Shown here: in pieces, positions 13,802 to 36,648 of the stretch
Position numbering within the stretch: position 1 is the first letter of the stretch
How the letters are laid out: the number at the start of each line of letters is the position of its first letter
Assembly: GCA_964435495.1 (NCBI GenBank)
Contig: CAYSZK010000003.1
Coordinates: 2,870 to 66,869 of the forward strand
From: an uncultured Verrucomicrobiales bacterium
GTDB taxonomy: Bacteria; Verrucomicrobiota; Verrucomicrobiia; JADLBR01; JAIBCM01
Direction: 5' to 3'
Length of the DNA stretch: 64,000 bases
Made by a program: the position numbers and the translations under genes
The notes under the pieces: model-generated
What the model saw: the letters and a program-made list of their open reading frames with translations, nothing else
Database searches by the model: none
Told to the model about the DNA's origin: nothing

Positions 13802-13964
13802 ACCGGTATCGCCGTCCAACGCGCTCTCCCGGATTTCGGTGCTCTGGAAGCGGGGAACGGCCACAGAGCCACGAGGGGCAGGGAAGCCAAGCCTGAAGGC
13901 CAACAGACTCTGGGTTGGCCGCGGGGTTGGCGCCCCGGCCGCACAAAGGGGGGGGCGCTCCGCG

Positions 13965-20806: not shown

Positions 20807-20864
20807 GGATTGCGGTCAGGATGCTACGCGAAGGACGGGGCGGCGGCAAGGCGGCAAAGTCTTG

Positions 20865-21647
20865 CTACGGGTTGCACCGGTCGGCGGCGAAGAGCGCGGC
20901 CCCGAGCGCGCCGGTCATGTGGGGATCGGGCGCGACGGCCACAGGTTGGCCCAAGGCGCGCTCCATGGCCCCGGCCATGCCCGGGACGCGGGCGACGCCT
21001 CCGGTAAAGACGATGGGCGGCGTAAGATCGCGCCCGGCGAGGGCGGCGAGGCGGGCGGCCAGGGCGGCGAGCACGCCGGCGGCGATCTCCTCGCGCGGCA
21101 CGCGGGAGGCGAGGAGACCGATGATTTCGCTTTCGGCGAAGACGACGCACATGCTGCTGATGGCGGCGGGCTTGAGGCCGCGCGAAGCCACTTCGCCGAG
21201 GTTGGCCAGCGGGACGCCGAGGCGTTCGGCGACCAGCTCAAGAAACCGGCCGGTGCCGGCGGCGCAGCGGTCGTTCATTCGGAAGTCCAGCACCGCGCCG
21301 CCGGGCTTGAGGCGCGTGACCTTGCTGTCTTGGCCGCCGACTTCGATCACGGTGCGCGAGCCGGGTTGGAGATGGGCGGCGCCGCGGGCGTGGCAGGTGA
21401 TTTCCGTGACAGCGCCGTGGGCCGCGCCGATGATGTGGCGGGCGTACCCGGTGGCAATGGCGCACCGGACGGCGCCGCGGCCCCCAGGGATTTCCGCGAG
21501 GACAGCCTCGTAAAGGGCGGCGGCTCGTTGCTCCTGGTCGGGACCCTGCTCGGCGGCGCCGGAAGCCACGACGCGGCGGGACTGGGAGTCGAGGATGACG
21601 ATTTTGATGGCGCGGCTGCCCGCGTCGATGCCGGCGGCGAGGGTCAT
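20865..21647 (-). CDS. BadF/BadG/BcrA/BcrD-type ATPase (HgdC-like activase of 2-hydroxyacyl-CoA dehydratase / benzoyl-CoA reductase family)
   Basis: Acetate/sugar-kinase fold start MTLAAGIDAGSRAIKIV, then the conserved VEVGGQDSK and TGGVARVPGM. I confirmed the ATG at 21647, which overlaps the upstream gene's stop by 4 bp. Confidence 0.8.
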   Translation of the reverse strand: MTLAAGIDAGSRAIKIVILDSQSRRVVASGAAEQGPDQEQRAAALYEAVLAEIPGGRGAVRCAIATGYARHIIGAAHGAVTEITCHARGAAHLQPGSRTVIEVGGQDSKVTRLKPGGAVLDFRMNDRCAAGTGRFLELVAERLGVPLANLGEVASRGLKPAAISSMCVVFAESEIIGLLASRVPREEIAAGVLAALAARLAALAGRDLTPPIVFTGGVARVPGMAGAMERALGQPVAVAPDPHMTGALGAALFAADRCNP

Positions 21648-23053
21648 GGCGCGGGGGTGGCGCTCCGAGGCCGGGCTTCGCGGGCGGTTTCGACGAGGGC
21701 TTCGAGGCGGGTGCGCAGGGCGGCTTCGGCGGCATCGTCCAGGGACGGCACCTCGATTTCGAGCACGGGAATGGCGTGCCGGGCGGTGATGGCCTGTTGG
21801 AGGAGGATGGACTCGGCGGCGCAATGGCTGGCGCCGGGGATTCTGGAGATGACGGCGGCTTCGGCGCCGAACCGCGTGATGTCGCGGCAGATTCTGTCGC
21901 CGCGCCCGGCGCAAGGCCCGGCCATGGGATCGGCGAGGGCGGACCGGGCGAGGGCGGTGAGCGGATCGGAATCCTCGGGGATGGGGTCGAGGGCGTGGCA
22001 GAAAAGGAATTCGGAGCCGCAGAGGCGGCCGCCGCACTCTTCGAGGAGGTTCATGGCCTTGAGATCGGCGGCGGGATTGATCCAAAAGACCCGCACGGCA
22101 TCGGCGGGGAGGACGCCGGCGCGGGCGGCAACGCGGTGGCGCACTTCGGCGGCGACGGTTTCGAGGACGGCGAGGCATTCGGCCGGGTCGGAACAAAAAT
22201 GGATGGCGAGCATTTCGCAGATGAGCATTTCGAGCGCCGGAAAGGGGCAGGCCGGGGCGGTGTACACAAGCGAGCGCAATTCGTCGAGCAGGGCGCGGAC
22301 GTGGTTGGCGCCGGCGATGCCGGCTTGGAGCGTGGCGTCGGCGAGGGGCCGTCCGGTCAGGCCTTCGATGAGCTTCCGGACGCCGTCCAGCTCGGCGCGG
22401 ACGAGGCGGAGCTGGGAGGCGGGGGCGGTGAAACCGCCGGGGAGGGGAACGGCCTCTTCGTCGGGACCCGGCTGGCGGCGGTGGGGGATTTCCCACCAGT
22501 GGACGGGATGGCCGAGGCCTTCGAGGAGCTGGGAGATGGCGGTGAGATCGTCGCAGCAGGCGCCGACGCTGCAGACGACGCGGTCGGGGATGGGGAAATG
22601 GGCGCCGGTGACAAAGGCGCCGAGCAGGGCGCGCACGGGGCAGAGGCCGGGACCGGCGCCGAGGGCTTCGGCCTGGTCGAGAAGGCCGGCGCTGGATTCC
22701 AGGAGGCATGGCAGCCACCATGCGCCGTCGAGGTAAAACGCGGTGACGCCGGGGTCCGAATAGGCGATGACGGGGACCGTGCCAAGGTCCTTCATGACGC
22801 CGACGAGCTTCTTTCCTTCTTCCCGTGCTTCGCGCAGGCGGTCATTCTCGGTGAGTAGAAAATTCCAGAGGCGCAGGGCGGCGGCGGAGGTGTCGAAGAA
22901 GAGGGCGGCGAGGCGCCGGTTGGCGCCTTCGTCGAGATGGCGTTGGAGGGGGCCGCCGTACCCGGGTTCGCGCAGGCCGTCGGCGCAAAGCTGGGCGTGG
23001 CGGGCGCCCCATTCTTCCAGGCGGATGCGGCGGGGTCCGAGGGCGGCGTTCAT
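21644..23053 (-). CDS. 2-hydroxyacyl-CoA dehydratase family protein (HgdB/BcrB-like, 469 aa)
   Basis: Cys-rich segments (CSVGACCDDL, CAGRGDRICRD). Similar in length and composition to HgdAB/BcrBC subunits. I confirmed the ATG at 23053, overlapping the upstream stop. Confidence 0.65.
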   Translation of the reverse strand: MNAALGPRRIRLEEWGARHAQLCADGLREPGYGGPLQRHLDEGANRRLAALFFDTSAAALRLWNFLLTENDRLREAREEGKKLVGVMKDLGTVPVIAYSDPGVTAFYLDGAWWLPCLLESSAGLLDQAEALGAGPGLCPVRALLGAFVTGAHFPIPDRVVCSVGACCDDLTAISQLLEGLGHPVHWWEIPHRRQPGPDEEAVPLPGGFTAPASQLRLVRAELDGVRKLIEGLTGRPLADATLQAGIAGANHVRALLDELRSLVYTAPACPFPALEMLICEMLAIHFCSDPAECLAVLETVAAEVRHRVAARAGVLPADAVRVFWINPAADLKAMNLLEECGGRLCGSEFLFCHALDPIPEDSDPLTALARSALADPMAGPCAGRGDRICRDITRFGAEAAVISRIPGASHCAAESILLQQAITARHAIPVLEIEVPSLDDAAEAALRTRLEALVETAREARPRSATPAP

Positions 23054-24156
23054 GGGCGGGCGGCGGCTTGGGCGGCGAGGGTTTCGATAAAGGCTTCGAC
23101 GCGGGTGCGGGTGCGTCCGGCGGCGGCGGGCCCGGTGAGCGGCCCGGCGGCGGAGTCGAGGGGAAGGACAGGGACCGCGGCGAGCTGCTGGATGCGGCGG
23201 AGTTCGGTTTGCCAGAGATCGCACCAGAGATGGTGGCGGACGATGAGGCCGTCGAGCTCGCGTTCGCGGATGGCGGCGATGAGCCATTGATAGAGGCGGT
23301 CGTTGGGGCGTAGGGCGATGTCGGGGATGGCGTCGAAATAGGCGGCGGTGAGCGTTTCGAGGGGGTCGCCGAGGGCGGCGCCGAAGTTGAGGGGTTCGGG
23401 CAGGGTGCGTTCGCCGTGTTCGGTCCCGTCGAGCATGACGCGGGCGCCGGCGGCTTCGATCCAATCGAACAACTCCATGTCGCGGAGAAAGAGCGGCCCG
23501 CCGATCAAGCCGATCCGCGGTTCGGCGCGTGTGGCCGGGGGATGATCGTGGCGCGGGGCCTCGGGGATATCCTGGTGCAAGCGCCTCAGGAAATAGTCCA
23601 CGACGCCGGAGCTGAACCAGCCGGTGCGCCACTCGGCGAGGGTACGGGCGGAGACGGGGAGATTTCCGTCGCGGTGGAGATCCCCGAGCCGGCGCAGGGA
23701 TTTGCGGGCTTCGTCGAACCGGAAAAAGGTTTCGACTATGGCTTGTGGCGAAGGGGCGGTGCCGCCGAGGGCGGTGAGGAACCGGCCAAGGCGCTCGAGC
23801 TCGAGGGTGTAATATTCGCGGGCGGCCGGGCTTTTGCAGGCCTTGGGAACGTGGAACAGGAAGACCGGCGGCGAGTCGCCGCGGGTGGCGGCGAGCTCGG
23901 CGGCTCGGCGTTGCTGGTCGCAGGAGGTGGCCATGACGATGGCCGCGTGGGTGGCGCCCGCGGTTTCGTCGAGGAAGGCTTCGGCGTAGGGGCAGAAACC
24001 GGCCGCGCAGCCGCCGCAATCGCTGTCGGAACCGGCGGGCATCAGGCGGACAGGCCGGAACCCGTGGGCGGCGATCCATTCCGGGGGAATGAAAAAGGAG
24101 GTGACAACGACTTTCCTTCCCGGAAACCGCGCGCTCCACCGGCCCAGGGGGTTCAT
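23050..24156 (-). CDS. 2-hydroxyacyl-CoA dehydratase family protein (HgdA/BcrC-like, 368 aa)
   Basis: Cys cluster GSDSDCGGCAAGFCPY plus MATSCDQ. I confirmed the ATG at 24156. The upstream gene's stop (24158..24160) overlaps this ATG. Confidence 0.65.
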   Translation of the reverse strand: MNPLGRWSARFPGRKVVVTSFFIPPEWIAAHGFRPVRLMPAGSDSDCGGCAAGFCPYAEAFLDETAGATHAAIVMATSCDQQRRAAELAATRGDSPPVFLFHVPKACKSPAAREYYTLELERLGRFLTALGGTAPSPQAIVETFFRFDEARKSLRRLGDLHRDGNLPVSARTLAEWRTGWFSSGVVDYFLRRLHQDIPEAPRHDHPPATRAEPRIGLIGGPLFLRDMELFDWIEAAGARVMLDGTEHGERTLPEPLNFGAALGDPLETLTAAYFDAIPDIALRPNDRLYQWLIAAIRERELDGLIVRHHLWCDLWQTELRRIQQLAAVPVLPLDSAAGPLTGPAAAGRTRTRVEAFIETLAAQAAARP

Positions 24157-24157
24157 G

Positions 24158-25015
24158 TCAGGCGGGCTCCTTCGCGGGGGCGGGTGGCGGCCCCATGCGC
24201 CAGGCTGGCTGGATTTCGCAGGCGCCGCAATGGACGCATTCCATGCAGCGGATGCAGCGGGGATCGTCGGCCCGGACCTTGGAACTGACGCCGAAATCGC
24301 AGGTGTCGCCGCAGCGGCCGCAGTCGCGGCAGCGTTCGGGGAAAAAGCGCACCGAAAAGAGCGAGAAGCGGTTGAACAGGCCGAAGATGGCGCCGAGCGG
24401 GCAAAGGAGGACGCACCACGGGCGGCGGATGAAGAACATCGCGCCGAGCACCGCGCCCAGGACGGAGAGTTTGATGGCATTGGGCCAGACAACCGGCGCG
24501 CCCGCGAACGCCTGGCTGGCGGCGTGGGGGAGGGAGGCTTCAAGCGCGCCAGCCGGACAGACGCGGCAGAAGAAGAGCGGGTGTGCTTCGCCCCAGAACC
24601 AGGGGACGGCGACGACAAGACCGGCGAGCACGGCGTACCGGAGATGCGTCATCCAGTATGGCGGGTCCCATTTGGGCGTGGGAACCTTGGCGGCAAGGTC
24701 CTGGAGCAAGCCAAAGGGGCAGGCCCACCCGCACAAGGCGGTGCCGGCAAGCGCGCCAGCCAGGACAAGCGTGCCCAGCGCGAGGAACGGCATCAGATGC
24801 AGCGCGCTGAACTGGGCGAGCACGCCGATGGGACAGGCGAACGTGGCCAGCGGACACGCATAGCAATGGAACACAGGCGCGCACACCGAGTGCGTGCGCA
24901 GGCCCGCGGGACTGAGCCATGCCACGAGGAACAACGATTGCACCCAGAGCCTGTGGCGCGAGAGTTTCGAGGCGGGCGTGTTGAAGGAAAGTTGAGCCAT
25001 GGACGCCATGACCAA
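24158..25015 (-). CDS. Membrane-bound 4Fe-4S polyferredoxin (NapH/MauN-like)
   Basis: Four or more TM helices with two ferredoxin-type clusters (CxxCxxCxxxC-like: CRDCGRCGDTC and CIRCMECVHCGAC), plus the CPLATFACP and CGWACPFG motifs typical of the NapH family. Confidence 0.7.
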   Translation of the reverse strand: MVMASMAQLSFNTPASKLSRHRLWVQSLFLVAWLSPAGLRTHSVCAPVFHCYACPLATFACPIGVLAQFSALHLMPFLALGTLVLAGALAGTALCGWACPFGLLQDLAAKVPTPKWDPPYWMTHLRYAVLAGLVVAVPWFWGEAHPLFFCRVCPAGALEASLPHAASQAFAGAPVVWPNAIKLSVLGAVLGAMFFIRRPWCVLLCPLGAIFGLFNRFSLFSVRFFPERCRDCGRCGDTCDFGVSSKVRADDPRCIRCMECVHCGACEIQPAWRMGPPPAPAKEPA

Positions 25016-25028
25016 ATGGTCACTGTAT

Positions 25029-25409
25029 TCAGGTGGGACACCGGGCTTGCGGCGTCCCGGTGTAGGTCAGCCGCAGGACGCCCTCGGGCGTGCGAGCCAG
25101 GCCGGAGCGCGCCACTTCGAGAACAAGCTCGGGCTCGGCCTTGAGGGTGGACACGGTCCTGCGGACGACGATCTCGCTTGGCGCCTCTTGGCTGCCCATC
25201 AAGCCGGGCATTCCGGGCTCGCCGGGTTCGAGGCCGGGCCCGGCGCCGGGCGGAGGGGGCGGGGGCGTTTCCCGGGTTTCGCGCTCGAAGGTGACAGTCT
25301 GGTGATGGCCCATCGCGCCAAACACAAGCATGAACGCGCCGGCGGACACGAGCAGCGACGCGGCGAACGTGCGGCGGACCGGGTGGGAGGCCGGCGCGGA
25401 CGGGTTCAT
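25029..25409 (-). CDS. Hypothetical small membrane-anchored protein
   Basis: Start MNPSAP. One TM helix (FAASLLVSAGAFMLVFGAM), a poly-Pro linker and a C-terminal beta-rich domain. It lies immediately downstream of tRNA-Sec. I recognised no family. Confidence 0.35.
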   Translation of the reverse strand: MNPSAPASHPVRRTFAASLLVSAGAFMLVFGAMGHHQTVTFERETRETPPPPPPGAGPGLEPGEPGMPGLMGSQEAPSEIVVRRTVSTLKAEPELVLEVARSGLARTPEGVLRLTYTGTPQARCPT

Positions 25410-25430
25410 GGCGCGGCGCCCCGCGAAGAA

Positions 25431-25526
25431 TGGCGGAGGCGAATGGGAGTCGAACCCACCCGGGACCTTTCCAGGCCCCACACTGGTTTTGAAGACCAGG
25501 AGCGCCACCGGACGCCTGTCACCTCC
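25431..25526 (-). tRNA. selC: tRNA-Sec (selenocysteine tRNA, anticodon TCA)
   Basis: Reverse complement reads GGAGGTGACAGGCGTCCGGTGGCGCTCCTGGTCTTCAAAACCAGTGTGGGGCCTGGAAAGGTCCCGGGTGGGTTCGACTCCCATTCGCCTCCGCCA. It has an 8-bp acceptor stem, anticodon loop CTTCAAA (UCA), a long variable arm, a GGTTCGACTCC T-loop and an encoded CCA, and is 96 nt long. Confidence 0.8.
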
Positions 25527-25541
25527 AAAAATCGCATGCGG

Positions 25542-27158
25542 TCAATCTCCTGTTTGCCGTCCGTCCATTTGCGCCTGGACCGCTTTGTAAAACATCATGA
25601 CCGGCGATCCCCCAAAAGCAATCGCGCTCCACGCCGCGTCGTCGATTTCGTCCTGGCTGAATCCCATTGCGCGGGCCTTTTGGATGTGCTGGACGGCGCA
25701 GGGTTCGCACTTGGACAGAACCGACAAGGCCACGGCAATGGCCTGCTTGGCCGGTGCGTCAAGCCCCTTGGGCCTGCCCGCCGATTGCAGAAACGCCATG
25801 AACCGTTTCTCGGTGTCCTGGATGGCGCTCCCGGAAACGCCCGGCGCCCGCGCGGCGTCCGGCGGCGCGGCATCGGTTTCCGCGCAGCAGGCGGTTTCGG
25901 CGCCGGTGGCGCCGGTGGCGGGTGGGGCAGGCGGGGGGGCGGCGCGCGGCATGACACGTTCCTGGCGGGTTGTTAGAGTCACCATGCCCGTGCCCTTTCC
26001 GGTGGCACGTCCGATGACCGCGGCGGCGGGCACGCCGCGGGCGTGAAGGGCGGTGACGAGGGCGGGGGCGCGGTCGTGAGGGATGGCGATGAGGAGGCCG
26101 CCGGAGGTTTGGGGATCGAAGCAAACGTCGAGCGCGACGGGGTCAAGGCCTTCCGCGGAGCGGACCTGGCCGCCGGCGGCGGCGCGGTTGCGTTCGGTGG
26201 CGCCGGGGATGACGCCTTCGGCGGCGCGGGCCAGGGCGCCGGGGAGCAGGGGGATGTCGTCCCAGACCAACTCGGCATCGACGCCGCTGTCGCGGGCCAT
26301 TTCGGCAAGGTGCCCGAGGAGGCTGAAGCCGGTGACGTCGGTGCAACCGTTGGCGCCGTGGGCGAGCATGAGTTCGGCGGCGGTGTTGTTGAGGGCGGCC
26401 ATCGAGGCGGCGGCGGCCGCGATCTCGTCGGGACCGGCGCGGCCAATCTGTGCGGCAAAGGCGAGGATTCCCGTGCCGAGGGGTTTGGTGAGGACCAGCG
26501 CGTCGCCGGGCCGGGCGCCGGCGCGGGCGGTCACGCGGTCCGCGTCGATCTCCCCGGTGACGGCAAAGCCGGCTTTGATCTCGCTGTCCTGGATGCTGTG
26601 GCCGCCGATGACCGAGACGCCGGCCTCGGCCATCTTGTCGAGGCCGCCGCGGAGGATGTCGCGCATGACGCTGGTGGGGACGGCGCCGGCGGGGAAGCCG
26701 ATGATGGACAGGGCGGTCAAGGGGCGGCCACCCATGGCATAGACGTCGCTGACGGAGTTGGCGGCGGCGATCTGGCCGAAGGTGTAGGGATCATCGACCG
26801 AAGGACTGAAGACATCGACCGTCTGGACCAGGCACCGGGCGCCGTCGAACCGGTAAACCCCGGCGTCGTCCCCGGCGGCAACGCCGAGGAGCACGCGCGG
26901 GTCGTCGGGCGCGGGAAGGCCCTGGACGGCCTCTTTGAGGGTGGCCAGGTCGATCTTGGAGGCGCAGCCGGCCTTTTGGACAAGCCGCGTGAGGCAGACG
27001 GGACCAGGCGCGGGTTCGAGGTGTTCGCCGGCGCAATGGCAGACGTCCTTTTCCTTGAGAAGCTCGCACGGGCAGGCGAGGCGCGGGTCGCACACGCAAT
27101 GGCCCAGCGCGATGGAGCGGCGCATGACGCGCTGGCGTTTTTCGAGGTCCCTGGCCAT
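25542..27158 (-). CDS. selD: Selenide, water dikinase (selenophosphate synthetase), Cys form, with an N-terminal Cys-rich extension and a C-terminal AhpD/carboxymuconolactone-decarboxylase-like domain
   Basis: SelD core with LTRLVQKAGCASKI (E. coli: LTQYSHGAGCGCKI) and a PurM-like fold. The N-terminal roughly 50 aa carry three CxC pairs (CVC, CPC, CHC). The C-terminal roughly 110 aa carry an AhpD-like CxxC (SKCEPCAVQH). Confidence 0.8.
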   Translation of the reverse strand: MARDLEKRQRVMRRSIALGHCVCDPRLACPCELLKEKDVCHCAGEHLEPAPGPVCLTRLVQKAGCASKIDLATLKEAVQGLPAPDDPRVLLGVAAGDDAGVYRFDGARCLVQTVDVFSPSVDDPYTFGQIAAANSVSDVYAMGGRPLTALSIIGFPAGAVPTSVMRDILRGGLDKMAEAGVSVIGGHSIQDSEIKAGFAVTGEIDADRVTARAGARPGDALVLTKPLGTGILAFAAQIGRAGPDEIAAAAASMAALNNTAAELMLAHGANGCTDVTGFSLLGHLAEMARDSGVDAELVWDDIPLLPGALARAAEGVIPGATERNRAAAGGQVRSAEGLDPVALDVCFDPQTSGGLLIAIPHDRAPALVTALHARGVPAAAVIGRATGKGTGMVTLTTRQERVMPRAAPPPAPPATGATGAETACCAETDAAPPDAARAPGVSGSAIQDTEKRFMAFLQSAGRPKGLDAPAKQAIAVALSVLSKCEPCAVQHIQKARAMGFSQDEIDDAAWSAIAFGGSPVMMFYKAVQAQMDGRQTGD

Positions 27159-27164
27159 GGCGGG

Positions 27165-28337
27165 TCAGGCGGGGGCGCCGGCTTCCGTGCGGATGGTTTC
27201 AAAAAGGGCTTCGAGCCGGACGGCGATCCGCCCGGTGTCCGAGGGGGAGTAATCCGTTTCGATGCGGAGGTACGGCAGGGCCAGCCTGTCCCCGGCAAGC
27301 CGTTTGACGAGATCGGACTCGATATCGTAGGTGAGGCAGGCCTGCCAGACCAGGTCGATGACGCAGGCCGCGCGGTACTCGCGCGCCAGGCGGGCGATGG
27401 ATTCGAGCCGGGCGTTGTTGGGCGACATCACCGAGCACGGAATGGCCAGGTATTTGTCCGCCAGCGCCTCAATGGGATCGGGATTGGCCTCGTCCACGTC
27501 GTCGAGGATCGGTTTGAGGCCGGTGCAATTTTCCTGGCAGACGATGAGCCCGCCGCGGTCCTCGATGAGGTCCACCACGCGCTCCGCCCCGTGCACCACG
27601 GGCACGCCGGTAAGCAGCACGCGAACGCGTCCAGCCAGGTCCGGGCGCGATGGCGCGGCTTCCCGCTCCCGGAGGATGGCCTCGTAGCGGGCGAGGTCCT
27701 CGGGAATGCCGGAGATGATGGACTTGAGATCAAGCAATTCGCGCCCCGTGAGCGGGGGCGGATCGAGGCGCATGAGGCCGGCCAGGCGGCGGCGCAGGCG
27801 GCGCTCGCGGTTCATGAGCCGGATGGCGTCCCGGATGCGGGCGGTGGTGATTTTGACGCGGAACCGGTCCTCGAGCACCTGGATGAGGCGGTTCATTTCG
27901 GACGTCCACTGGGCGCGGGCGCCGGGATCGCCGGGACGGTGGGGGAGAGCGAGGATGTGCATGGGCCGGGACTCGGCCATGATCTCGAACATCTTTTTCT
28001 TGCCGTCGCAGGTTGTTTCGGCGACGACGAGCGCGGCTGACTCAAGGAATGGGTTGGATTTTCCGACGTGGTAGCCGAAGGTGGACTTGATCAGGGGGCA
28101 GAGATTGGAGGGCAACCGGGTTTCCGCGTCGGGGATGGTTTCCGGTTCGCCGCCGCAGAGGCAGACTGGAACGGCATTGGCGGCCATGATGATTTCGCGC
28201 GGGGTGAATTCGCACATGATGCCGACGATGGGGCGGCCTTGTTGGGCGGCCTGTCCGGCATGGGCGCGGCAATGGCCGAACATGCCGTCGAACCACGCCA
28301 GGGACGCGGGGCGTGGGGAAGCGGTCAGCGCGGGCAT
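27165..28337 (-). CDS. 2-hydroxyacyl-CoA dehydratase family protein, second HgdB-like paralog (390 aa)
   Basis: VGIMCEFTPREIIMAANAVPVCLCGGEP and ETTCDGKKKMFE match the HgdB/BcrB-type Fe-S subunit family. It sits 6 bp upstream of selD. Confidence 0.6.
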   Translation of the reverse strand: MPALTASPRPASLAWFDGMFGHCRAHAGQAAQQGRPIVGIMCEFTPREIIMAANAVPVCLCGGEPETIPDAETRLPSNLCPLIKSTFGYHVGKSNPFLESAALVVAETTCDGKKKMFEIMAESRPMHILALPHRPGDPGARAQWTSEMNRLIQVLEDRFRVKITTARIRDAIRLMNRERRLRRRLAGLMRLDPPPLTGRELLDLKSIISGIPEDLARYEAILREREAAPSRPDLAGRVRVLLTGVPVVHGAERVVDLIEDRGGLIVCQENCTGLKPILDDVDEANPDPIEALADKYLAIPCSVMSPNNARLESIARLAREYRAACVIDLVWQACLTYDIESDLVKRLAGDRLALPYLRIETDYSPSDTGRIAVRLEALFETIRTEAGAPA

Positions 28338-28385
28338 GGCAGGGCTCTCCGAAGCGTGCGGGCTTGGCGGCGCGCGGGGCTGCGT

Positions 28386-30260
28386 TCAGGGTTTCTTGAA
28401 CCAATCCTCGCTCTGCTTGTATTCAAACGCGCCGAGCTTGGCGTCCACTTCCACGCGGAATTCGCCGTCGAGACTGGAAGGCACACGCCACGTGTACCGG
28501 CAGGTGCCGCCTCATCCATACTCAAATTTGCCGGACTCGATCTTCTTGCCGTCCCGGTTGAGGATGGTGAAGATTGGGGCGGACTGGCGCTCGTTGTTGC
28601 GGCGGGCCCCGGCTTCGTAGGTCTGGCCTTCCTTGTCTTCGAGGGTGAATTCAATATAGGCCGTATTGTTGCCGCGCCAATCGACATCGACTTTCGCCCT
28701 GAGGCCAGATCCCACGCCTGTGGCCACGGCGGCGCCGGGGCGGATTTCGATTTTGCGGGAGTTGCCGGAGGACGCGCCGTTGAGGGTCCAGTCGGCGCCG
28801 CCTGCCTGGTGGCGCAGGCGGTAATACCCGATCTGGTAGGTGCCCGGCGCGAGGTCCCAGCCGTCTTTGGCGCCGGCGTCCAGGTAACCGCAGCAACCGC
28901 GGCTGAGGACGGCGAGTTCCAGGTGGGGGGACTCTGGTTTCAGTTTGCCGGCGTCCATGCGGACCTCCTGAAGGAGCAGCGTGGAAGCGTCCGGCTCGGA
29001 GTTGACCTGGAAAAATTTTCCGGCGAGGGCGAGCAATGGGGTTAGCGGCAAGATTTCGCCCCGGTAATCGAAGCGTTCGTTGCCGTCGAGGTCGAGGGCG
29101 AGGAGATCGTAGCCGGGACGCTCGTCTCCGTCGGACGATCGCTGGTTGTAGGGCAGCAGGTCGAGCGTGAACCCGGCCTCGATGCGCCCGTTGTTGCTGG
29201 CGTCAGTCACCGCGGCGAGCAGTTTGCGGGGGCCGGCGGCGGTTTTCCCTTCCCAGTGGCAGGCCGGCGCGACTTCGAGGTAACCGGGGGTGGAGGAGTT
29301 TTGCGTGTACACCCGGCCTTTGAACTCGATCTCCAGAGGGACTTTGCCTTCCGCCGCTGACGACTGGATTTCAGCGTCGCCGAATTTGTAGTAGCCGTAG
29401 CGCTCGGCCGATTCGCCGGTGTACTCATTGGAGGCGCTCAGGACCTTGGCCTTGGCCAGGTCGCCGCTGCCATCCACATCGACCAGCAACCGGGCCCTGC
29501 CCAAGTTGTCGGCGTCCATGAGCATGAACACGTCCCGCCCGCCGATCTTGGCCGAGAAGTAGAGCGGCTTTTTCACGTCCGGCGCGTTTTTGATGCCTTC
29601 GGGCGGGGCGTAAAGCAGGCGGGCGTTGCGTTCCGAGGCGTAGGCGAGATATTGCTGCAACTCGGCGGTTCCGCGCTTTTTCAAGGGCGTCTTCTCCCCA
29701 AAACCGACCTGATCCATGGACCGGGAGGCGGGGGCCGATGCCGCGGCGGGCGCGGGGGATTGGGATGTTTCGGGCTTGGCCGGGGACGGGGCGGCGGGCT
29801 GTTCGGTCGCGCGCTGGGCTTGGAGTTCCCTCTGCCACTCGTCGTACCGGCGCCAGAAATCGGTCCTGGCGGCGTCGATCTCGATGGCGGTGGACCCGGT
29901 GGCGGCGAGGATGAGCTTTCCTTTCTCGATGCCGACCAACTCGAACTCCTTGCCGGGGGCAAGCTTCATCGAGCCGACGGTCTTGCCGTTGATATGGAGC
30001 GGCACCTCCGAAGGCGCGAGGACGGAGACGGCCTTGGGCCATTGCTCCGGGTCTTTGGCGATCTCGGCGAGCTTGGCGGCGTCGGCGGCCGGACCGGATT
30101 GCGCGGGGGCGGCGGCGGCCCAGGCCCAGGCCAGCGCGGCGGCCAGGATAAGAAAGGGATCGAGCGCGCTGGCTGGATTCCGACCCGCAAACACCCGAGG
30201 CAATGGCCTGATCCCCTGCATAGCGGCGCCATGGTGGCGGATTCCTGGCGCGCTGGTCAA
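28386..30260 (-). CDS. Candidate selenoprotein: secreted protein of unknown function with an in-frame TGA (Sec?) 42 codons before the final TGA
   Basis: The annotated ORF ends ...KFEYG then TGA at 28512..28514. The same frame continues GGTCRYTWRVPSSLDGEFRVEVDAKLGAFEYKQSEDWFKKP to a stop at 28386..28388. The extension has GC3-rich codons and a protein-like composition. Its FEY motif echoes KFEYG just before the TGA. A signal peptide starts at the alternative start 30221 (MQGIRP...AAALAWAWAAAAPAQS). Confidence 0.5.
28470..28511 (-). promoter_or_regulatory. Candidate bacterial SECIS-like hairpin immediately 3' of the in-frame UGA
   Basis: The mRNA reads UGA GGC GGC ACC UGC CGG UAC ACG UGG CGU GUG CC. 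The outer stem is GGCAC/GUGCC and the inner is GCC/GGC, around a CACGUG palindrome. Only manual folding was done. Confidence 0.3.
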
Positions 30261-30399
30261 GGCAAATTATTTGTTTTCTCCAAAACGTACGGAGCGGGGC
30301 GCCCGCGCCGCCGGCACGCCTTTCGGAGAAGCCGGCCCCGGCCAACCGTCCCAAGCGCCGCCGCCCGCGTGAAATGGAAAATGGAATCTTGATTCGGGG

Positions 30400-31893
30400 G
30401 TGGGACGGGGGCAGGATGGGGGCATGGACGGCATGCCGGACCCGGCGCTGTTGCGCGCGATTCCGCCGGTGGAGGCGTTGGTGGCGGCGAATGCGGGCCG
30501 GGAGGAATTTGCGGGTTTGTCGCGGGAGCGGTTGACGGGTCTGGTGCGGGAAACGGTGGAAGGCGTGCGGCGGGAGGCGCGGACGGGGTCGCTCGCGCCG
30601 GGGGGGGAAGGCGGGGAGGGATGGGCGGCGTGGGTGCGGCGGGAGATCGCGGCGCGGCTGCTGGGGCGTGCGCGGGAATCGGCGCGGGCGCATTACCGTC
30701 GGGCGATCAACGCGACGGGCGTGATTTTGCACACGGGCCTTGGCCGGGCGGTGCTGGCGGAGGAGGCGCTCGCGCAGGTGGGCGCGGAATTGCGCGGGTA
30801 TTCGGTGCTGCAACAGAGCGTGGAGACGGGGGAACGGACGCGGCGGGACCTGGGAGTGGAACGGTTGTTATGCCTGTTGACGGGCGCGGAGGCGGCGACG
30901 GTGGTGAACAACAACGCGGCGGCCACGATGCTGGCGCTGGCGGCGATGGCGGCGGGGCGCGAGGTGCTTGTGTCGCGGGGCCAGTTGATCGAGATCGGCG
31001 GGTCGTTCCGGCTGCCGGACGTCATGGCGGCGAGCGGCGCGAAGCTGGTGGAGGTGGGCACCACGAACAAGACCCACCCGCGCGATTACGCCAACGCGCT
31101 CACGGAGCGGACGGCGGCCATCATGCGGGTGCATCCGAGCAATTACCGCATCCACGGTTTTGTCAGGGAGGTGGGCACGGCGGAGCTTGTCGCCATCGCG
31201 AAGCCGCGCGGAATCCCCGTCATCGACGACCTGGGCGCGGGCGCGTTGCTTGACCTTTCGCGGTTTGGGTTCGAGAAGGAGCCGACGATCCAGGAATCGG
31301 TGCGGGCGGGGGCGGACGTGGTGTTGTCGAGCGCGGACAAGCTCATTGGCGGGCCGCAGGGCGGGATCATCCTGGGGCGGGCGGCGGTGGTCGCGGCCAT
31401 CCGGAAGCATCCGCTGGCGCGGATCGTGCGCGTGGACAAGGTGACGCTGGCGGCGCTGGAGGCGACCCTGCGCCTGTTTCTTGACGAAGGCCTGGCGTTG
31501 CGGCGGGTTCCGACGCTGCGGATGCTGTGCCGCACGGTGGAGGAGATCGGCGCGGAGGCCGCGGCGATGGCGGACTGGTTGCGGGCGGAGGGGGGCGGCG
31601 CGTTGCCGGCGGAGGTGGCGTTGGAGGACGGGGCGTCGTTCATGGGGGGCGGGTCGCTGCCGGAGCAGGAGCTTCCGACGCGGCTGGTCGCGGTCCGTCC
31701 GCGGGCGATGGGGGCCGCGGAGCTGGCGGCGCGGCTGCGGCGGGGCGTGCCGGCGGTGTTTTGCCGCGTCCGGCATGAGGGGGCGTTGTTCGACCCGCGA
31801 ACGATGCTGGCCGGGGAGGCGGCGGAGGCGGCGCGGGCGGTGGCGCGTTGCCTGGTGGAGGCGCCTGGCGCGGAGAGCGCGGCGGCGGCTTGA
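30400..31893 (+). CDS. selA: L-seryl-tRNA(Sec) selenium transferase
   Basis: PLP-dependent SelA core (NATGVILHTGLGRA...SADKLIGGPQGGII) and the typical N-terminal tRNA-binding region. The true start may be 30424 or 30433. Confidence 0.85.
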   Translation: MGRGQDGGMDGMPDPALLRAIPPVEALVAANAGREEFAGLSRERLTGLVRETVEGVRREARTGSLAPGGEGGEGWAAWVRREIAARLLGRARESARAHYRRAINATGVILHTGLGRAVLAEEALAQVGAELRGYSVLQQSVETGERTRRDLGVERLLCLLTGAEAATVVNNNAAATMLALAAMAAGREVLVSRGQLIEIGGSFRLPDVMAASGAKLVEVGTTNKTHPRDYANALTERTAAIMRVHPSNYRIHGFVREVGTAELVAIAKPRGIPVIDDLGAGALLDLSRFGFEKEPTIQESVRAGADVVLSSADKLIGGPQGGIILGRAAVVAAIRKHPLARIVRVDKVTLAALEATLRLFLDEGLALRRVPTLRMLCRTVEEIGAEAAAMADWLRAEGGGALPAEVALEDGASFMGGGSLPEQELPTRLVAVRPRAMGAAELAARLRRGVPAVFCRVRHEGALFDPRTMLAGEAAEAARAVARCLVEAPGAESAAAA

Positions 31894-31898
31894 CCCGG

Positions 31899-33842
31899 AT
31901 GGCGACCCGGCGGATTCACATCACCCTGGGCACGGCCGGGCATATTGACCACGGCAAGACGGCGCTGGTCCGGAATCTGACCGGGTGCGAGACCGACACG
32001 CTCAAGGAGGAGAAAGAGCGGGGGATGTCGATTGACCTGGGGTTCGCGCCGTGCCGGATCGAAGGCCTGGAAGCCGGGCTGGTGGACGTGCCGGGGCACG
32101 AGAATTTCGTGCGGACGATGGTGGCGGGCGCGACCGGGATGGACGGGGTGATTCTTGTCGTCGCGGCCGACGATGGCGTGATGCCGCAGACCCGCGAGCA
32201 TCTGGACATCCTGTGCCTGCTGGGGGTGCGGCACGGCGTGGTGGCGCTGACGAAGATCGACCGCGTCGAGGCGGGGCGGGTGGAAGAGGTGGCCGCGGAA
32301 GTCCGCGGGCGGCTGCGTGGCACGTTCCTGGAGCCGGCGGAAATCTGTCCGGTGTCGAACACGACGTTTGAAGGCTTGAATGATCTCCGGGCGGCGCTGG
32401 TCCGGTTGATGGAGCGCGTGCCGCCGCGCGGGACGGGAGGTGTGTTCCGGCTGCCGGTGGACCGGGCGTTTGCGGTGAAGGGGTATGGCGCGGTGGTGAC
32501 GGGGATACCGGCGCACGGCCGGGTGGCGGTGGGCGCGGAGCTGGAGATGCATCACCAAGGCGGGGAAAAGCCGGTGGCCGGGCGGTTGCGGGCGGTGCAG
32601 GTGTACCGGGAGGCGGGAGAGACGGCGCAGGCGGGCGAGTGCGCGGCCCTCAATGTGCCGCAATGGGACCACGCGCGGACGCGGCGCGGGGATGTCGTGG
32701 CGGCGCCGGGCTGTTTTGTCGCGGGCGAGTGGCTGGTGTGCCGCCTTGCGTTGCTCGGGCGGGAAGGGTTGGACCTCAGGAACGGCGGGCAGGTTCGCGT
32801 GCACACGGGGACCGTTGACGTGCCGGGGACGGTGTACCTGGAGCAAGGGCGCCGGATGAATGCGGGAGACGAGGGACTCGTGCAAGTGCGGGTGGCCGCG
32901 CCGATTGTGGCGGGGCCGGGCGATCCCTTCCTTCTTCGCGTCCTGGGTCCGGCGCGCACCATCGGAGGCGGGCGGATCGTGGCGATGCCGGCGCGGAGGT
33001 TGCGGCGGCAGCGTCCGGAGGCGTGGGCCGCGGCGCGGGCGCGGGCCGAGGCGCTTGGGGACCCAATACGGCTGGTGGAGAGTTGCTTGCGCGCGGCCGT
33101 GGGCGGCATCGCCCGCGAACCGGGCCTGGAGTTTGAGGCCAAACTGCGGGCGGACGAAGTGCGGGCGGCGCTTGGGGCGTTGGAAGCCGGGGGCGTGGCG
33201 GTGGCGGTTCCGGGGCAGGGGTATATCCATGGGGAGACCGCGGCGCGTGCGCGGGCGGCGGTGTTGGCGGCGGTGGGGGCGTTTCACCGGGAGCATCCGG
33301 AGAGTCCGGGCCTGGCGCGGGAAAGCGGGTGGGTGCCCACGCTGGGGGAAGGGCCACCTCTGGCGCCGGCGTTGGCGGAGTGGGCGGTGGCGGCACTGTT
33401 GGGGGATGGGGCGTTGGTGAGGGACGGGGCGACGGGGCGGATTGCGTTGCCGGAGCACACGGCGCGGGTGACCGATGCGGACAGGCTGGGGATGGAGGCG
33501 GTGGAGCGGGCGTTTCGGGAACATCGATTTGCTCCGCCGGACGAAACCGGGTTGGCGGCGGCGGGCGGGGTCGGGGTGGAGGAGGCGCGGCGGCTGACGC
33601 GGCTGCTGGAGGAGCGGGGGCGGCTGGTGCGGGTGGGGGCGGGGCTGCTGTTTCACGCGGAGGCGGTGGCCGAGGCGCGCGCGCGGATTGAGGAACACAT
33701 GCGGCGGGAAGGGCGGCTGGAGAGCGTGAAATTCAAGTACCTGGTGGAAACGACGCGCAAGTTCGCGCTGCCGCTTCTGGATTATTTCGACCGCATTGGA
33801 GTCACGCGCCGGGTGGGGAACACGCGGTTTCCGCGGCGGTGA
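31899..33842 (+). CDS. selB: Selenocysteine-specific translation elongation factor
   Basis: G-domain (GHIDHGKTALV, DVPGHENF, TKID), EF-Tu-like domains II and III, and a long winged-helix C-terminal extension that would bind SECIS. The start lies 5 bp after the selA stop. Confidence 0.85.
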   Translation: MATRRIHITLGTAGHIDHGKTALVRNLTGCETDTLKEEKERGMSIDLGFAPCRIEGLEAGLVDVPGHENFVRTMVAGATGMDGVILVVAADDGVMPQTREHLDILCLLGVRHGVVALTKIDRVEAGRVEEVAAEVRGRLRGTFLEPAEICPVSNTTFEGLNDLRAALVRLMERVPPRGTGGVFRLPVDRAFAVKGYGAVVTGIPAHGRVAVGAELEMHHQGGEKPVAGRLRAVQVYREAGETAQAGECAALNVPQWDHARTRRGDVVAAPGCFVAGEWLVCRLALLGREGLDLRNGGQVRVHTGTVDVPGTVYLEQGRRMNAGDEGLVQVRVAAPIVAGPGDPFLLRVLGPARTIGGGRIVAMPARRLRRQRPEAWAAARARAEALGDPIRLVESCLRAAVGGIAREPGLEFEAKLRADEVRAALGALEAGGVAVAVPGQGYIHGETAARARAAVLAAVGAFHREHPESPGLARESGWVPTLGEGPPLAPALAEWAVAALLGDGALVRDGATGRIALPEHTARVTDADRLGMEAVERAFREHRFAPPDETGLAAAGGVGVEEARRLTRLLEERGRLVRVGAGLLFHAEAVAEARARIEEHMRREGRLESVKFKYLVETTRKFALPLLDYFDRIGVTRRVGNTRFPRR

Positions 33843-35418
33843 TTTCATTCCAGAGCGCGGGGCCTTCGACGGCGGTCGGGGTGACGATCCGGAGGCGATC
33901 GGGGGCCGGGGCGGGCTGGAGGAGCGAGACGGCGGCGAGGGAGAGAGCGGCAACGAGGACGCCGGCGCCAATGTAAAAGTAGCCGTAGCCGCCGGCCAGC
34001 CAGGCGGGCAGGACGGCGGTGTAATAATGGGGGGCGCCGGGATCGGCGGCCTGAAGGAAGCGGTATTCCCAAAGATAAACCGCGAGGGTCGTCACGGCGC
34101 CGAGGACGCTGGCGGTGAAGGCGCCGCTCGCGGTGGCGCGGCGCCAGAAGATGGCGATGGCGGGGACGGCGATGGAGGCGGAAAGCACGCCGGAGGAAAG
34201 ATAATAGACGTCGCCGAGGCGGTCGGCGATGGCGGCGTAACCCACGGCAAGCAGCAGGCAGGCGGCGGTGATGATCTTGGCGGGTAGCACCGTGGACTTG
34301 GCGGAACCGCCGAACAAGGGGCGGTAGAGATCGTAGGCGAGGGGCATGGCGGTGACGTTGGTGAACGTGTCCACGGTGGACATCTGGCAGGCGATGACAC
34401 CGAGGAACATGAAGACCGCCAGCCCAGGCGGCATCTGGGCGAGGAACGCGGCGATGATTCCCGTGAAATCGGCGCCCACGGCCGCGGCGCCGGGGCCGCT
34501 AGGTTTGAAAACGACGAGCGCGCAGAAGGCGACCACCGCCGGGATGGCGATGACGAACACCGTGATCAGGACCAAGCCGATGAGGGCGCCGATGCGCGCC
34601 TGGGGCGTGGTGGGCGCGGCTTGGATGCGCAGAACGAGATCTTGTTCGACCAGCCAGCCGGGGAGGTACCCGATGAGCAGGACGGCGGGAAAAATCCAGT
34701 CGAGCGTGTTGAGGTTGAGGGCGGCGGGGGCGCCGGCGTTGGGCGGCGCGATTTCGCGCAAGGCGGCGAGGACGCCCATGGGCGCGGCGGCGTGGGCCTG
34801 GACCAGCGCCCAACCGCCGAGGACCGCCATGAACGGCGCCATGACGGCGAATTGCAGAAAGTCGGTGGCGACGATGGAGCGGAAACCGCCCAGCACCATA
34901 TAGACGAGGACCGGGAGGATGAACGCGAGGAGCATCAGATTGGGGTGGGCCGCCAGCCCGAGGCTGGGGGCGGCGAGGGTCTTGACCATGACCAACTCGG
35001 CGCCGGTCCAGGAAAGGAACACGCCGAAGGAAAGAAAGGCGGCGAGACGCCGGAGGTTCGGGCCGAACCGGCGGCCGAGGGCTTCGGGCAGGCTCAGCGC
35101 GGCGGCGCGGCGGAAGAACGGGACCAGCAGGACGATGAGCCAGCAGAGGATGAACCAGGGGATGGGCAAGAGCCAGAGGCCGGTGGCGCCGTACCCGTAA
35201 ATCTGGCTCATGCCAAACCCGATCCATCCGAGCATAAGCCAGCCGGAGGCCAGGGAGACCCCCAGGCGCCAGCCGGGGATGGAACGGCCGGCGGCCCAGA
35301 ACTCGAAATCGGGATGCGCCCGGGCTTGGAGCAACCGGCGGCGGCCCCAGAAGCCGACGCCCATGACGGCAAGCGCGTACATCCCGTAAACAACCCAACA
35401 CCCCGCGACGGTATTCAT
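33802..35418 (-). CDS. Sodium:solute symporter (SSS) family transporter
   Basis: About 13 TM helices with SSS-family topology. I confirmed the ATG at 35418. The 3' end converges with selB and overlaps it. Confidence 0.8.
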   Translation of the reverse strand: MNTVAGCWVVYGMYALAVMGVGFWGRRRLLQARAHPDFEFWAAGRSIPGWRLGVSLASGWLMLGWIGFGMSQIYGYGATGLWLLPIPWFILCWLIVLLVPFFRRAAALSLPEALGRRFGPNLRRLAAFLSFGVFLSWTGAELVMVKTLAAPSLGLAAHPNLMLLAFILPVLVYMVLGGFRSIVATDFLQFAVMAPFMAVLGGWALVQAHAAAPMGVLAALREIAPPNAGAPAALNLNTLDWIFPAVLLIGYLPGWLVEQDLVLRIQAAPTTPQARIGALIGLVLITVFVIAIPAVVAFCALVVFKPSGPGAAAVGADFTGIIAAFLAQMPPGLAVFMFLGVIACQMSTVDTFTNVTAMPLAYDLYRPLFGGSAKSTVLPAKIITAACLLLAVGYAAIADRLGDVYYLSSGVLSASIAVPAIAIFWRRATASGAFTASVLGAVTTLAVYLWEYRFLQAADPGAPHYYTAVLPAWLAGGYGYFYIGAGVLVAALSLAAVSLLQPAPAPDRLRIVTPTAVEGPALWNEITAAETACSPPGA

Positions 35419-35514
35419 CGTTCGGATGAATCTGTCGGAAGGGCGGGGCCATGGCGAGTGGAAATGATGCGGCGCGGCCGCTTTGGGATTGCGCACGCGG
35501 CGGGTGGGCGCACG

Positions 35515-36648
35515 ATGGGGCGCGTGTTGTACCGTGAACTTGGCGGGACGGGATTGAAAGTGTCGCAGTTGGGCTTTGGCGCGATGCGATTGCCCATGAC
35601 CCCGCGGGACGAATCCGGGAAGGCGCGGGTGGACCGGGAAATGGCGGTTCCGTTGATGCATCGGGCGTTCGAGGCCGGGGTGAACTACATCGACACGGCG
35701 GTGGGTTATTGCGACGGGGACTCCCAGAGCGCGGTGGGCGAGGCGCTGCGCGGCTGGCGGAGGCGGATCGTGGTTTCGACGAAGAACCATTACTATGGGG
35801 AAGACGAGGGGGAATGGTGGCGGAACCTGGAGAACTCGCTGGAACGGCTGGGGGTGGATTGCATCGACATCTACAACCATCACGGCGTGAACTGGGACAC
35901 GTTCACCCGGCATGTCGAGCCGCGCGTGGGCAAGTGGATGCGCAAGGCCGTGGACCAGAAGCTCGTGCGGCACGCCTGCTGTTCGTTCCATGACAACAAC
36001 GCGAATCTCCGCCGGTTGATCGACACCGGGTACGCGGATGTCATCACACTCCAGTACAATCTGCTCGACCGGCAATTGGAGGACGGGATCGCCCACGCGC
36101 ACGCGAAGGGCGTGGGGGTGGTGGTGATGGGGCCGGTGGCGGGCGGGCGGCTCGGCGCGGGCAGCGACGTCCTGGCCGACCTGGTCCCCGGCGTCAGGCG
36201 CGTGCCCGAGCTGGCGCTCCGGTTTGTGCTGAGCAACCCCGGAGTCGCCGTCGCGCTGTCGGGCATGAGCGCCGTGGAACAGGTGGCGGAAAACGCGGCG
36301 GTGTGCGCGGACCGGGTGGCGCTTTCCGAGGGGGACCGCGCGGCGATTGCGGAACACCTGGCGCGGCTTCAAAAAATGGCGGACCTGTATTGTACCGGCT
36401 GCAAGTATTGCATGCCCTGCGAGGCGGACGTGAACATCTCCGCAATCTTCGAGTTTTTCAACCGGGCAAAGGTGTACGGGCTGTGGGAATCGGCGCGCGC
36501 GTCGTATGCAAGCCTGGGGACCGTCCCGTGGCTGAAGGGGAACCGCGCGGACGCCTGCGTGGAGTGCGGAAGTTGCGAGGACAAGTGCCCGCAGCGGATT
36601 CCGATCCGGGACCAGCTCAAGCAGGCGCACAAGGCGTTGGCCGGGTAG
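35515..36648 (+). CDS. Aldo/keto reductase with a C-terminal 4Fe-4S ferredoxin-like domain
   Basis: AKR N-terminus (ELGGTGLKVSQLGFGAMRL...NYIDTA). The C-terminus carries CTGCKYCMPCE and CVECGSCEDKCP cluster motifs. I confirmed the ATG at 35515. Confidence 0.8.
   Translation: MGRVLYRELGGTGLKVSQLGFGAMRLPMTPRDESGKARVDREMAVPLMHRAFEAGVNYIDTAVGYCDGDSQSAVGEALRGWRRRIVVSTKNHYYGEDEGEWWRNLENSLERLGVDCIDIYNHHGVNWDTFTRHVEPRVGKWMRKAVDQKLVRHACCSFHDNNANLRRLIDTGYADVITLQYNLLDRQLEDGIAHAHAKGVGVVVMGPVAGGRLGAGSDVLADLVPGVRRVPELALRFVLSNPGVAVALSGMSAVEQVAENAAVCADRVALSEGDRAAIAEHLARLQKMADLYCTGCKYCMPCEADVNISAIFEFFNRAKVYGLWESARASYASLGTVPWLKGNRADACVECGSCEDKCPQRIPIRDQLKQAHKALAG

Follow-up and report, generated by a model that had tools for sequence, protein, structure and literature searches.

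Here, we describe a gene cluster for selenocysteine (Sec) use in a stretch of 64,000 nucleotides (hereafter the window) from an uncultured Verrucomicrobiales bacterium (NCBI GenBank assembly GCA_964435495.1, contig CAYSZK010000003.1, positions 2,870 to 66,869). An earlier reading of the sequence alone (the original prediction) had placed the four genes for Sec synthesis and insertion, selC, selD, selA and selB, within 8.4 kb around a single candidate client. All four genes were confirmed, tRNA-Sec by ARAGORN and Rfam model RF01852, and SelA, SelB and SelD by scores above the curated cut-offs (Table 1). The predicted boundaries, at the end of tRNA-Sec (25431) and at the SelB stop (33842), proved accurate, as did the strands, with selC, selD and the candidate on the minus strand and divergent from selA and selB on the plus strand. 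The span was drawn too short, being the core of a ~13-kb "selenium island" (20865-33842) that holds selB-selA and, divergently, a tightly packed string of genes for a secreted selenoprotein, a double-cubane cluster protein (DCCP), SelD, selC, a second, small selenoprotein (CPTU), a NapH-like protein, two HGD-D proteins and an activase. The full gene string was taken from gene calls on an identical metagenomic contig (L001); the genes past the activase (T2SSF, ClpP, trigger factor) are unrelated. This island is conserved across Planctomycetota, Verrucomicrobiota (here grouped as PVC phyla) and allied phyla, and we consider it likely that it keeps the decoding machinery together with its clients and with reductases that supply selenium.

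The secreted protein's open reading frame (ORF) runs for 582 codons on the minus strand to a first TGA (28512-30260), ends in ...GKFEYG-TGA, and is followed by 41 in-frame sense codons (GGTCRYTWRVPSSLDGEFRVEVDAKLGAFEYKQSEDWFKKP) and a second TGA. Used as the query of an exhaustive HMMER search, the portion that precedes the UGA yielded 416 homologue clusters (E <= 1e-3; clusters at 50% identity). Among the 149 best clusters, 140 end exactly at F-x-Y-G or x-Y-G, i.e. at the UGA, two carry Cys in place of Sec (P0230, FEYS-C-GGVC; P0236, FRTG-C-GYSC), and three read on with neither residue at the site. A degenerate DNA pattern (F-[EQ]-Y-G-TGA-G-G-x-C) scanned over species-representative genomes matched at least 120 stretches, counts that are lower bounds. 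When about 130 genomic copies were translated through the UGA, the TGA was kept and the tail U-GG-x-C-x-Y-S-W-R-V-P was conserved (...FEYG-U-GGTC-RYTWRVP... in the window type); only four of the ~130 listed copies look like chance matches.

Bacterial Sec insertion sequence (bSECIS) elements are stem-loops shortly 3' of the UGA whose apical loop contains a G. The hairpin behind this UGA is an 8-bp helix closed by the loop UGG, 13 nt after the codon. In an alignment of the 54 nt around the UGA from 129 copies, compensatory changes are found in 7 of the 8 hairpin pairs, and 109 double-change cells were observed against 9.4 in shuffles (0 of 500 shuffles as high), a signal that collapses on shifting the 3' partners 1 to 3 columns out of register. 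Part of the covariation couples the first base of a variable T/S/P codon to an Arg codon's third, synonymous base, and protein constraint therefore cannot account for it. The z-score of the single-sequence fold is -1.47. By comparative criteria (UGA, tail, Cys homologues and covarying SECIS), the UGA at 28512-28514 is a Sec codon, and the earlier designation of the secreted protein as a candidate selenoprotein stands.

This family is apparently undescribed. Its subtypes, tail included, have no match among the models of Pfam and NCBIfam (release 20, June 2026), and NCBI annotates one homologue as a "hypothetical protein" that ends at the UGA. An inventory of 119 prokaryotic selenoprotein families in a 2026 review (PMC13188914) holds nothing comparable, and the families of Haft & Tolstoy (2025), taken as the NCBIfam accessions in that review, gave no match in the NCBIfam scans. 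Full-text search of the open-access literature found the strings YGUGG, FEYGUGG and GUGGTC in no paper, and the read-through sequence found nothing but itself in a word-indexed protein search. The one protein with a similar motif, "hypothetical protein DG" (GUxG), was discarded as a possible member because its sequence is unrelated.

For the Cys form, AlphaFold2 supplied with an alignment of 130 sequences gave a confident model (mean predicted local distance difference test, pLDDT, 90.3; predicted TM-score, pTM, 0.86; pLDDT 35.6 in a single-sequence run), in which the protein is predicted to be nearly all beta, with several sandwiches. Three DxDxDG-like loops (YVDTDGDGDLSDE, DxNxDGRYD and AIDLNxDG) and a GxxGExY motif are near-invariant in the family. 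In the DSSP assignment of the predicted model, Sec and the Cys that follows four positions on share a turn joining two strands, where a selenylsulfide could form or a ligand be chelated.

Three subtypes were distinguished: type A (the window type) with a short tail, type B (SLSWREP) with longer tails, which in the one example scanned carry a LamG domain and a membrane anchor, and type C, in which the Sec-bearing beta-sandwich is fused to a polytopic membrane domain of ~250 residues. Type C copies include L006, L010-L013, L016, L017 and L061; their membrane domain has the conserved motifs N-R-x-x-R, C-R-K-R-Y and P-F-M-I-L-A-F-x-S-x-F-Y-R-x-R-F and no Pfam match. Related genomes hold two to four family paralogues, in tandem or on separate contigs. 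One related locus from a long-read-type assembly (L004, 5632-7045 and 7587-9884) shows frameshifts that are assembly errors rather than biology: a 1-nt insertion after GGTCRY shifts the frame of the selenoprotein tail, and the genes for uroporphyrinogen decarboxylase (URO-D)-family methyltransferases are in four pieces.

The prediction of a single client overlooked a second selenoprotein gene in the island (25020-25409), which ends in ...RLTYTGTPQAR-CPT-TGA-ATA-CAG-TGA, i.e. CPT-U-IQ-stop. The ending CPT-U-x-x-stop recurs in eight genome loci (including L003, L004, L006, L060, L080, L098 and L119), and a metagenome scan with a DNA pattern that required TGA gave at least 88 clear members with the consensus ...SEPALIKEV.VGGV......G.IK.TY.G..P...CPT-U-xx-stop. 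The hairpin that follows has 8 bp and begins 15-19 nt after the UGA; across 8 sequences, RNAalifold recovers all 8 pairs intact. The helix was scored in 74 distinct metagenomic sequences only at the outer pairs left free by the search pattern: three positions pair in 74/74, 74/74 (G-C 51, A-U 20; maximum of 1000 shuffles 65) and 65/74 cases and the fourth does not pair. Every sequence has G at the middle of the loop. Judged by a conserved UGA and a covarying hairpin, the UGA at 25029-25031 is a Sec codon on comparative criteria. The small protein has no Pfam or NCBIfam match, a word-indexed protein search with it found the query only, and the CPTU family also appears to be an undescribed selenoprotein.

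A NapH-like homologue follows the CPTU gene in 73 of the 74 cases with enough downstream sequence. The window protein carries a Fer4_5 domain and scores below the cut-offs for NapH quinol dehydrogenase (TIGR02163, 52 bits vs 213; NF007013, 43 vs 234), and is therefore labelled only NapH/MauN-like. The CPTU hairpin contains the ATG(s) of this downstream gene (AUGGCGUCCAUGG = M-A-S-M), and translation of the two genes could be coupled through SelB binding or ribosome passage at the UGA.

Table 1. Genes and RNA elements of the selenium island, in window coordinates.
Feature	Position	Strand	Evidence and remarks
BcrAD/BadFG-type ATPase (electron-transferring activase)	20865..21647	-	PF01869 170 bits; gene call
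HgdB/BcrC-family protein B	21644..23053	-	PF06050 127 bits; gene call; order kept in relatives
HgdB/BcrC-family protein A (2-hydroxyacyl-CoA dehydratase/benzoyl-CoA reductase-like subunit)	23050..24156	-	PF06050 142.5 bits; L001 gene call; order kept in relatives
NapH/MauN-like membrane ferredoxin	24158..25009	-	PF12801 (Fer4_5) 51.8 bits; CxxxCP motifs, two 4Fe-4S motifs
bSECIS-like hairpin for UGA 25029-25031	24995..25013	-	GGUCAUGG-CGU-CCAUGGCU; overlaps start codon region of NapH-like gene
Second selenoprotein candidate (CPTU), small, one N-terminal hydrophobic helix	25020..25409	-	UGA 25029-25031
selC, tRNA-Sec, anticodon UCA	25431..25526	-	ARAGORN; Rfam RF01852 74 bits (gathering score 47)
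SelD, selenide, water dikinase	25542..27158	-	TIGR00476 349.5 bits (cut-off 125); PF02627 CMD 52.5 bits
DCCP (earlier "HgdB-like paralog"), 390 aa	27165..28337	-	NF040772 408.3 bits (cut-off 350); PF06050 HGD-D
Secreted selenoprotein, type A, with signal-peptide-like N-terminus	28386..30221	-	UGA (Sec) 28512-28514; true stop 28386-28388
bSECIS-like hairpin for UGA 28512-28514	28480..28498	-	GGUACACG-UGG-CGUGUGCC; 8 bp, 13 nt after UGA
SelA	30400..31893, probable start 30424	+	TIGR00474 502.8 bits (cut-off 267.9); PF03841
SelB, Sec-specific elongation factor	31899..33842	+	TIGR00475 301.7 bits (cut-off 242.25)

The machinery itself has several distinctive features. SelD is a Cys form (active site GCASK) flanked by two further thiol-rich parts: an N-terminal extension with six cysteines (CxC-x5-CPC-x8-CxC) and a C-terminal AhpD/CMD domain (PF02627, cut-off 23) whose CxPC (CEPC in the window) and His, like the six cysteines, are unchanged across 28 aligned homologues; a variable linker also holds an invariant CC. 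This tri-domain fusion is common in Verrucomicrobia, Phycisphaerae and Planctomycetes, where it is annotated plainly as SelD. A resemblance of the N-terminus to the catalytic subunit of ferredoxin:thioredoxin reductase (CPC-x8-CHC) was considered and dropped, as no Pfam or PDB match was obtained and the His is not conserved. The SelB ORF opens at 31848, with the ATG at 31899 the likely start, and includes the C-terminal winged-helix (SECIS-binding) domains (PF09107 SelB-wing_3, 51 bits); selA is divergent from the secreted-selenoprotein gene. Only 15 nt separate the selD stop from selC, and ~21 nt separate selC from the next protein-coding start; the selD-selC adjacency is repeated in L003, L004 and L005 (spacing 4-15 nt). 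Thus placed, selC seems to be embedded in a polycistronic mRNA, and excision of the tRNA would divide the operon, leaving selD and the second selenoprotein gene on different pieces.

Six nucleotides separate the stop of the DCCP gene from the selD start. The seven DCCP cysteines (42, 61, 80, 110, 267, 301 and 334; spacing x18/x18/x29/x156/x33/x32) were compared with the published double-cubane motif CX19CX18-19CX29CX166-170CX32-34CX32C (Haft & Gwadz, bioRxiv 10.1101/2022.07.06.499078); the protein fails the strict regular expression but fits a relaxed one. A partner activase of the PF01869 type is encoded in the same gene string. Of the NF040772 DCCPs surveyed by the same authors, 955/970 are in SelD-containing assemblies, and double-cubane proteins were proposed to process selenium compounds or to carry a Se-bridged cluster (bioRxiv 10.1101/2022.07.06.499078). 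The in vivo selenium donor to SelD is listed as unresolved in the 2026 review (PMC13188914).

The island layout is conserved in Planctomycetota, Verrucomicrobiota and allied phyla, including relatives whose SelD is 59-66% identical, and its recurrence in dozens of independent genomes goes far beyond a chance grouping. Around type A genes, SelA lies upstream and divergent in 31/39 loci, and DCCP (21/22 loci) and SelD (17/18) follow downstream on the same strand; together with the published DCCP-SelD co-occurrence, this synteny upholds the proposed functional link of the HgdB-like gene. A frequent order in Phycisphaerae is selB-selA and, divergently, one to three type-A genes, DCCP, HgdB-A, HgdB-B, activase and SelD. 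Among CPTU loci of at least 5 kb, SelD is present in 22/38 and a FEYG-U-GG gene in 16/38. In 8-kb genome loci, which were not centred on the match, so that synteny frequencies are underestimates, selA/B/D genes were found beside 41 of 60 type A copies (DCCP/HgdB 19, NapH-like 8), 7 of 28 type C copies (DCCP/HgdB 4, NapH-like 12) and 2 of 28 type B copies (DCCP/HgdB 2, NapH-like 2). As far as gene order can tell, machinery, two clients and Fe-S proteins are thereby shown to be inherited as a unit.

The content of the island varies among relatives. In L004 and L005, a corrinoid (B12-binding) protein and MtaA-like URO-D-family methyltransferases fill the slot of DCCP, between the selenoprotein gene and selD. 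One Verrucomicrobiae locus (L003) has an S-adenosylmethionine-dependent UbiE/Methyltransf_11 methyltransferase between the NapH-like and HgdB-like genes (13114-13920), absent from the window, and another such gene beyond selB (2876-3427), again with no window counterpart. In the window, selB is immediately followed by a sodium:solute symporter gene that overlaps its stop convergently (33802-35400, minus strand) and by the gene for an aldo/keto reductase with a 4Fe-4S dicluster domain fused to its C-terminus (35470-36648, plus strand). The G+C content of the window is 66%; within 20001-34000 the island reaches 0.68-0.72, the secreted-protein gene has 0.647, and most flanks have 0.60-0.67. The higher value of the island could reflect codon usage or horizontal acquisition.

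Elsewhere in the window, UGA is a normal stop, with most confident ORFs ending in TGA. Other in-frame TGAs (7640, 27165, 38491 and more) were rejected as antisense-frame or gene-junction artefacts, and neither fdhA nor grdA nor any further long read-through candidate was found in the 64 kb. Near the related island of L004 (17400-20200) lies a FdsA/FdhA-like molybdopterin formate dehydrogenase gene, with FdhD and MobB-type accessory genes beside it, that has Cys (…CATTCHAPTV…) where selenoprotein FdhA has Sec.

The non-Sec homologues P0236, P0230 and P0226 have no sel or DCCP genes within 10 kb, which fits a co-location driven by Sec dependence. P0236 instead adjoins genes for ArsR (HTH_5), an ArsP permease, an SBF/ACR3-like protein, DGC and thioredoxin-like proteins (L126, 11391-19610), in a cluster that also holds a Thioredoxin-MerB fusion, a flavodoxin-like reductase and DsbD_2 and resembles an organo-metal(loid) resistance operon.

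Taken together, these data favor an island that probably unites the machinery with its clients and with selenium-supplying reductases. On comparative criteria, SelB reads both UGAs by way of 8-bp hairpins that have an N-G-N loop and stand 13-19 nt downstream. The minus-strand genes may form one transcript from which selC is processed. Both clients are probably extracytoplasmic, and the two selenoproteins and the NapH-like protein might form a membrane-associated selenol/thiol redox relay, while DCCP, the HgdAB-like pair, the activase and the extra thiol-rich domains of SelD would bring reduced selenium to the SelD active site. The machinery presumably lies beside its clients because the client genes are useless without it. 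Several results weigh against this interpretation. Most type B and type C copies have no sel genes nearby (only 2/28 and 7/28 do), and the function of the family is therefore probably not selenium supply as such. Foldseek searches against the PDB retrieved generic immunoglobulin-like arrays only (TM < 0.2) and give no functional clue, promoter and terminator scans were at chance level, and the selenium-reductase role of DCCP and the HgdAB-like pair is drawn from association only.

A possible, though on balance unlikely, alternative is that the selenoproteins themselves acquire selenium: periplasmic selenoproteins would capture or reduce selenium species from the environment with electrons from the NapH-like protein, and DCCP, the HgdAB-like pair and the activase would carry out an ATP-driven, low-potential reduction to selenide for SelD. 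SoxY carries sulfur on GGCGG, and by analogy selenium might be carried covalently on the Gly-flanked Sec. Such a pathway would suit the position of type-A genes at the head of the operon containing selD and selC, the adjacency of the CPTU/NapH-like pair to SelD in the 22 loci counted above, and the putative methyl-selenium demethylase system that occupies the DCCP slot as an alternative cassette; the DCCP-SelD link is published and the Se donor to SelD in vivo is an open question (PMC13188914). However, it faces a bootstrap problem, as selenoproteins would be needed to obtain their own selenium, and the location of non-Sec homologues away from sel and DCCP genes, together with the mostly unlinked types B and C, favors clients placed beside their machinery and selenium-supplying enzymes over selenoproteins that acquire selenium.

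Rather improbable, in our judgment, is a role of the U-x3-C hairpin and the CPTU tail in envelope binding or detoxification of a metal or metalloid (Hg, As, Cu or similar), with the genes near sel only through their need for Sec. Many known bacterial selenoproteins handle metals (Table 1 of PMC13188914), and the Cys-form P0236 adjoins the ArsR/ArsP/ACR3-like/Trx-MerB/DsbD_2 cluster, but this is a single neighbourhood in which the P0236 gene is convergently oriented, and the island in the window has no metal-transport genes.

Still more doubtful is a minimal Sec machinery maintained for a sole client, the secreted protein, in an organism with very few selenoproteins, its neighbours being linked only through that client. 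The lack of further candidates in the window and the Cys-type FdhA adjoining a related island agree with such a system; the CPT-U-IQ gene in the same operon already partly refutes it, and the several family paralogues per related genome, whether tandem or on separate contigs, also speak against it. It is hardly credible that translation simply ends at the UGA of 28512-28514, with a hairpin that acts as terminator or attenuator and a 41-codon tail that is either fortuitous or a small ORF in its own right: every database gene call ends there and the single-sequence fold score is only -1.47, but the in-frame tail is conserved at the amino-acid level over ~130 copies, Cys homologues run uninterrupted through the site, the covariation involves synonymous Arg codons, and the gene is co-located with the Sec machinery.

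Two widespread selenoprotein families, one of them with at least 416 clusters at 50% identity, are added to those known; neither is in the 2026 inventory of 119 families. The detection methods described in the deep-Sep paper lean on Cys homologues, and the great rarity of these is probably why the families were overlooked. Use of Sec in the Planctomycetes-Verrucomicrobia group may rest on envelope proteins and not on formate dehydrogenase. With a defined gene set, the statistical association of DCCP and SelD and the question of the SelD selenium source become testable; a pathway from acquisition to decoding, if true, would be the long-sought in vivo route of selenium to SelD and would give double-cubane proteins a physiological role.

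Similar arrangements have been described in part. The sel cluster of Slackia heliotrinireducens (selA/B/D, YedE/YedF, an HgdB-like subunit and an activase; Lin et al., 2015, PMC5322559) likewise groups selA, selB and selD with a 2-hydroxyglutaryl-CoA-dehydratase-family subunit and its activase. The window differs in that selC is embedded 15 nt after selD, in clients from two families without a match in Pfam, NCBIfam or the searchable literature, in the N- and C-terminal redox-type domains of SelD, and in that no YedE/YedF or Sec-lyase match was found among the scanned island proteins. The selenocysteine-assisted organometallic (SAO) locus (Haft & Gwadz) also has several selenoprotein genes near an NF040772 protein and an activase, but it occurs in Clostridia, Spirochaetes and Deltaproteobacteria rather than in PVC phyla; no island protein matched the SaoL/SaoC/SaoB/SaoP/SaoT/SaoX NCBIfam models (NF0407xx), and the window has no ATP-binding cassette (ABC) transporter or MerB-like genes. 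Type 1 mlp clusters, for which biochemical and genetic data support corrinoid-dependent methyl-selenium demethylation and in which selABCD and DCCP genes were noted (preprint, PMC10418091), resemble the L004 and L005 islands in having a B12-binding protein and URO-D-family methyltransferases, there in the DCCP slot, whereas the window island has DCCP, the HgdAB-like pair and the activase instead of corrinoid or URO-D genes.

The individual proteins can be compared in the same way. UXX-star and KCU-star proteins (NF041114, NF041211, NF033934) share with CPTU the Sec-x-x-stop ending and a Cys three residues upstream (CxxU); CPTU is distinguished by the lack of a hidden Markov model (HMM) match (for NF041114 and NF041211, none at E up to 1 or 0.1), by its predicted membrane anchor and by its pairing with a NapH-like gene whose start sits in the SECIS. 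A survey of SelD fusions listed NADH-dehydrogenase-like-SelD and NifS-like-SelD, with every extension N-terminal (Mariotti et al., 2015, PMC4561486). The window SelD is likewise a SelD-Cys joined to domains that plausibly deliver selenium, with a C-terminal AhpD/CMD domain that is absent from their list and, in addition, the short N-terminal 6-Cys motif and the CC linker. To the emerging association of DCCP with selenium, the window adds direct operonic adjacency, with DCCP and selD 6 nt apart, along with two novel client families.

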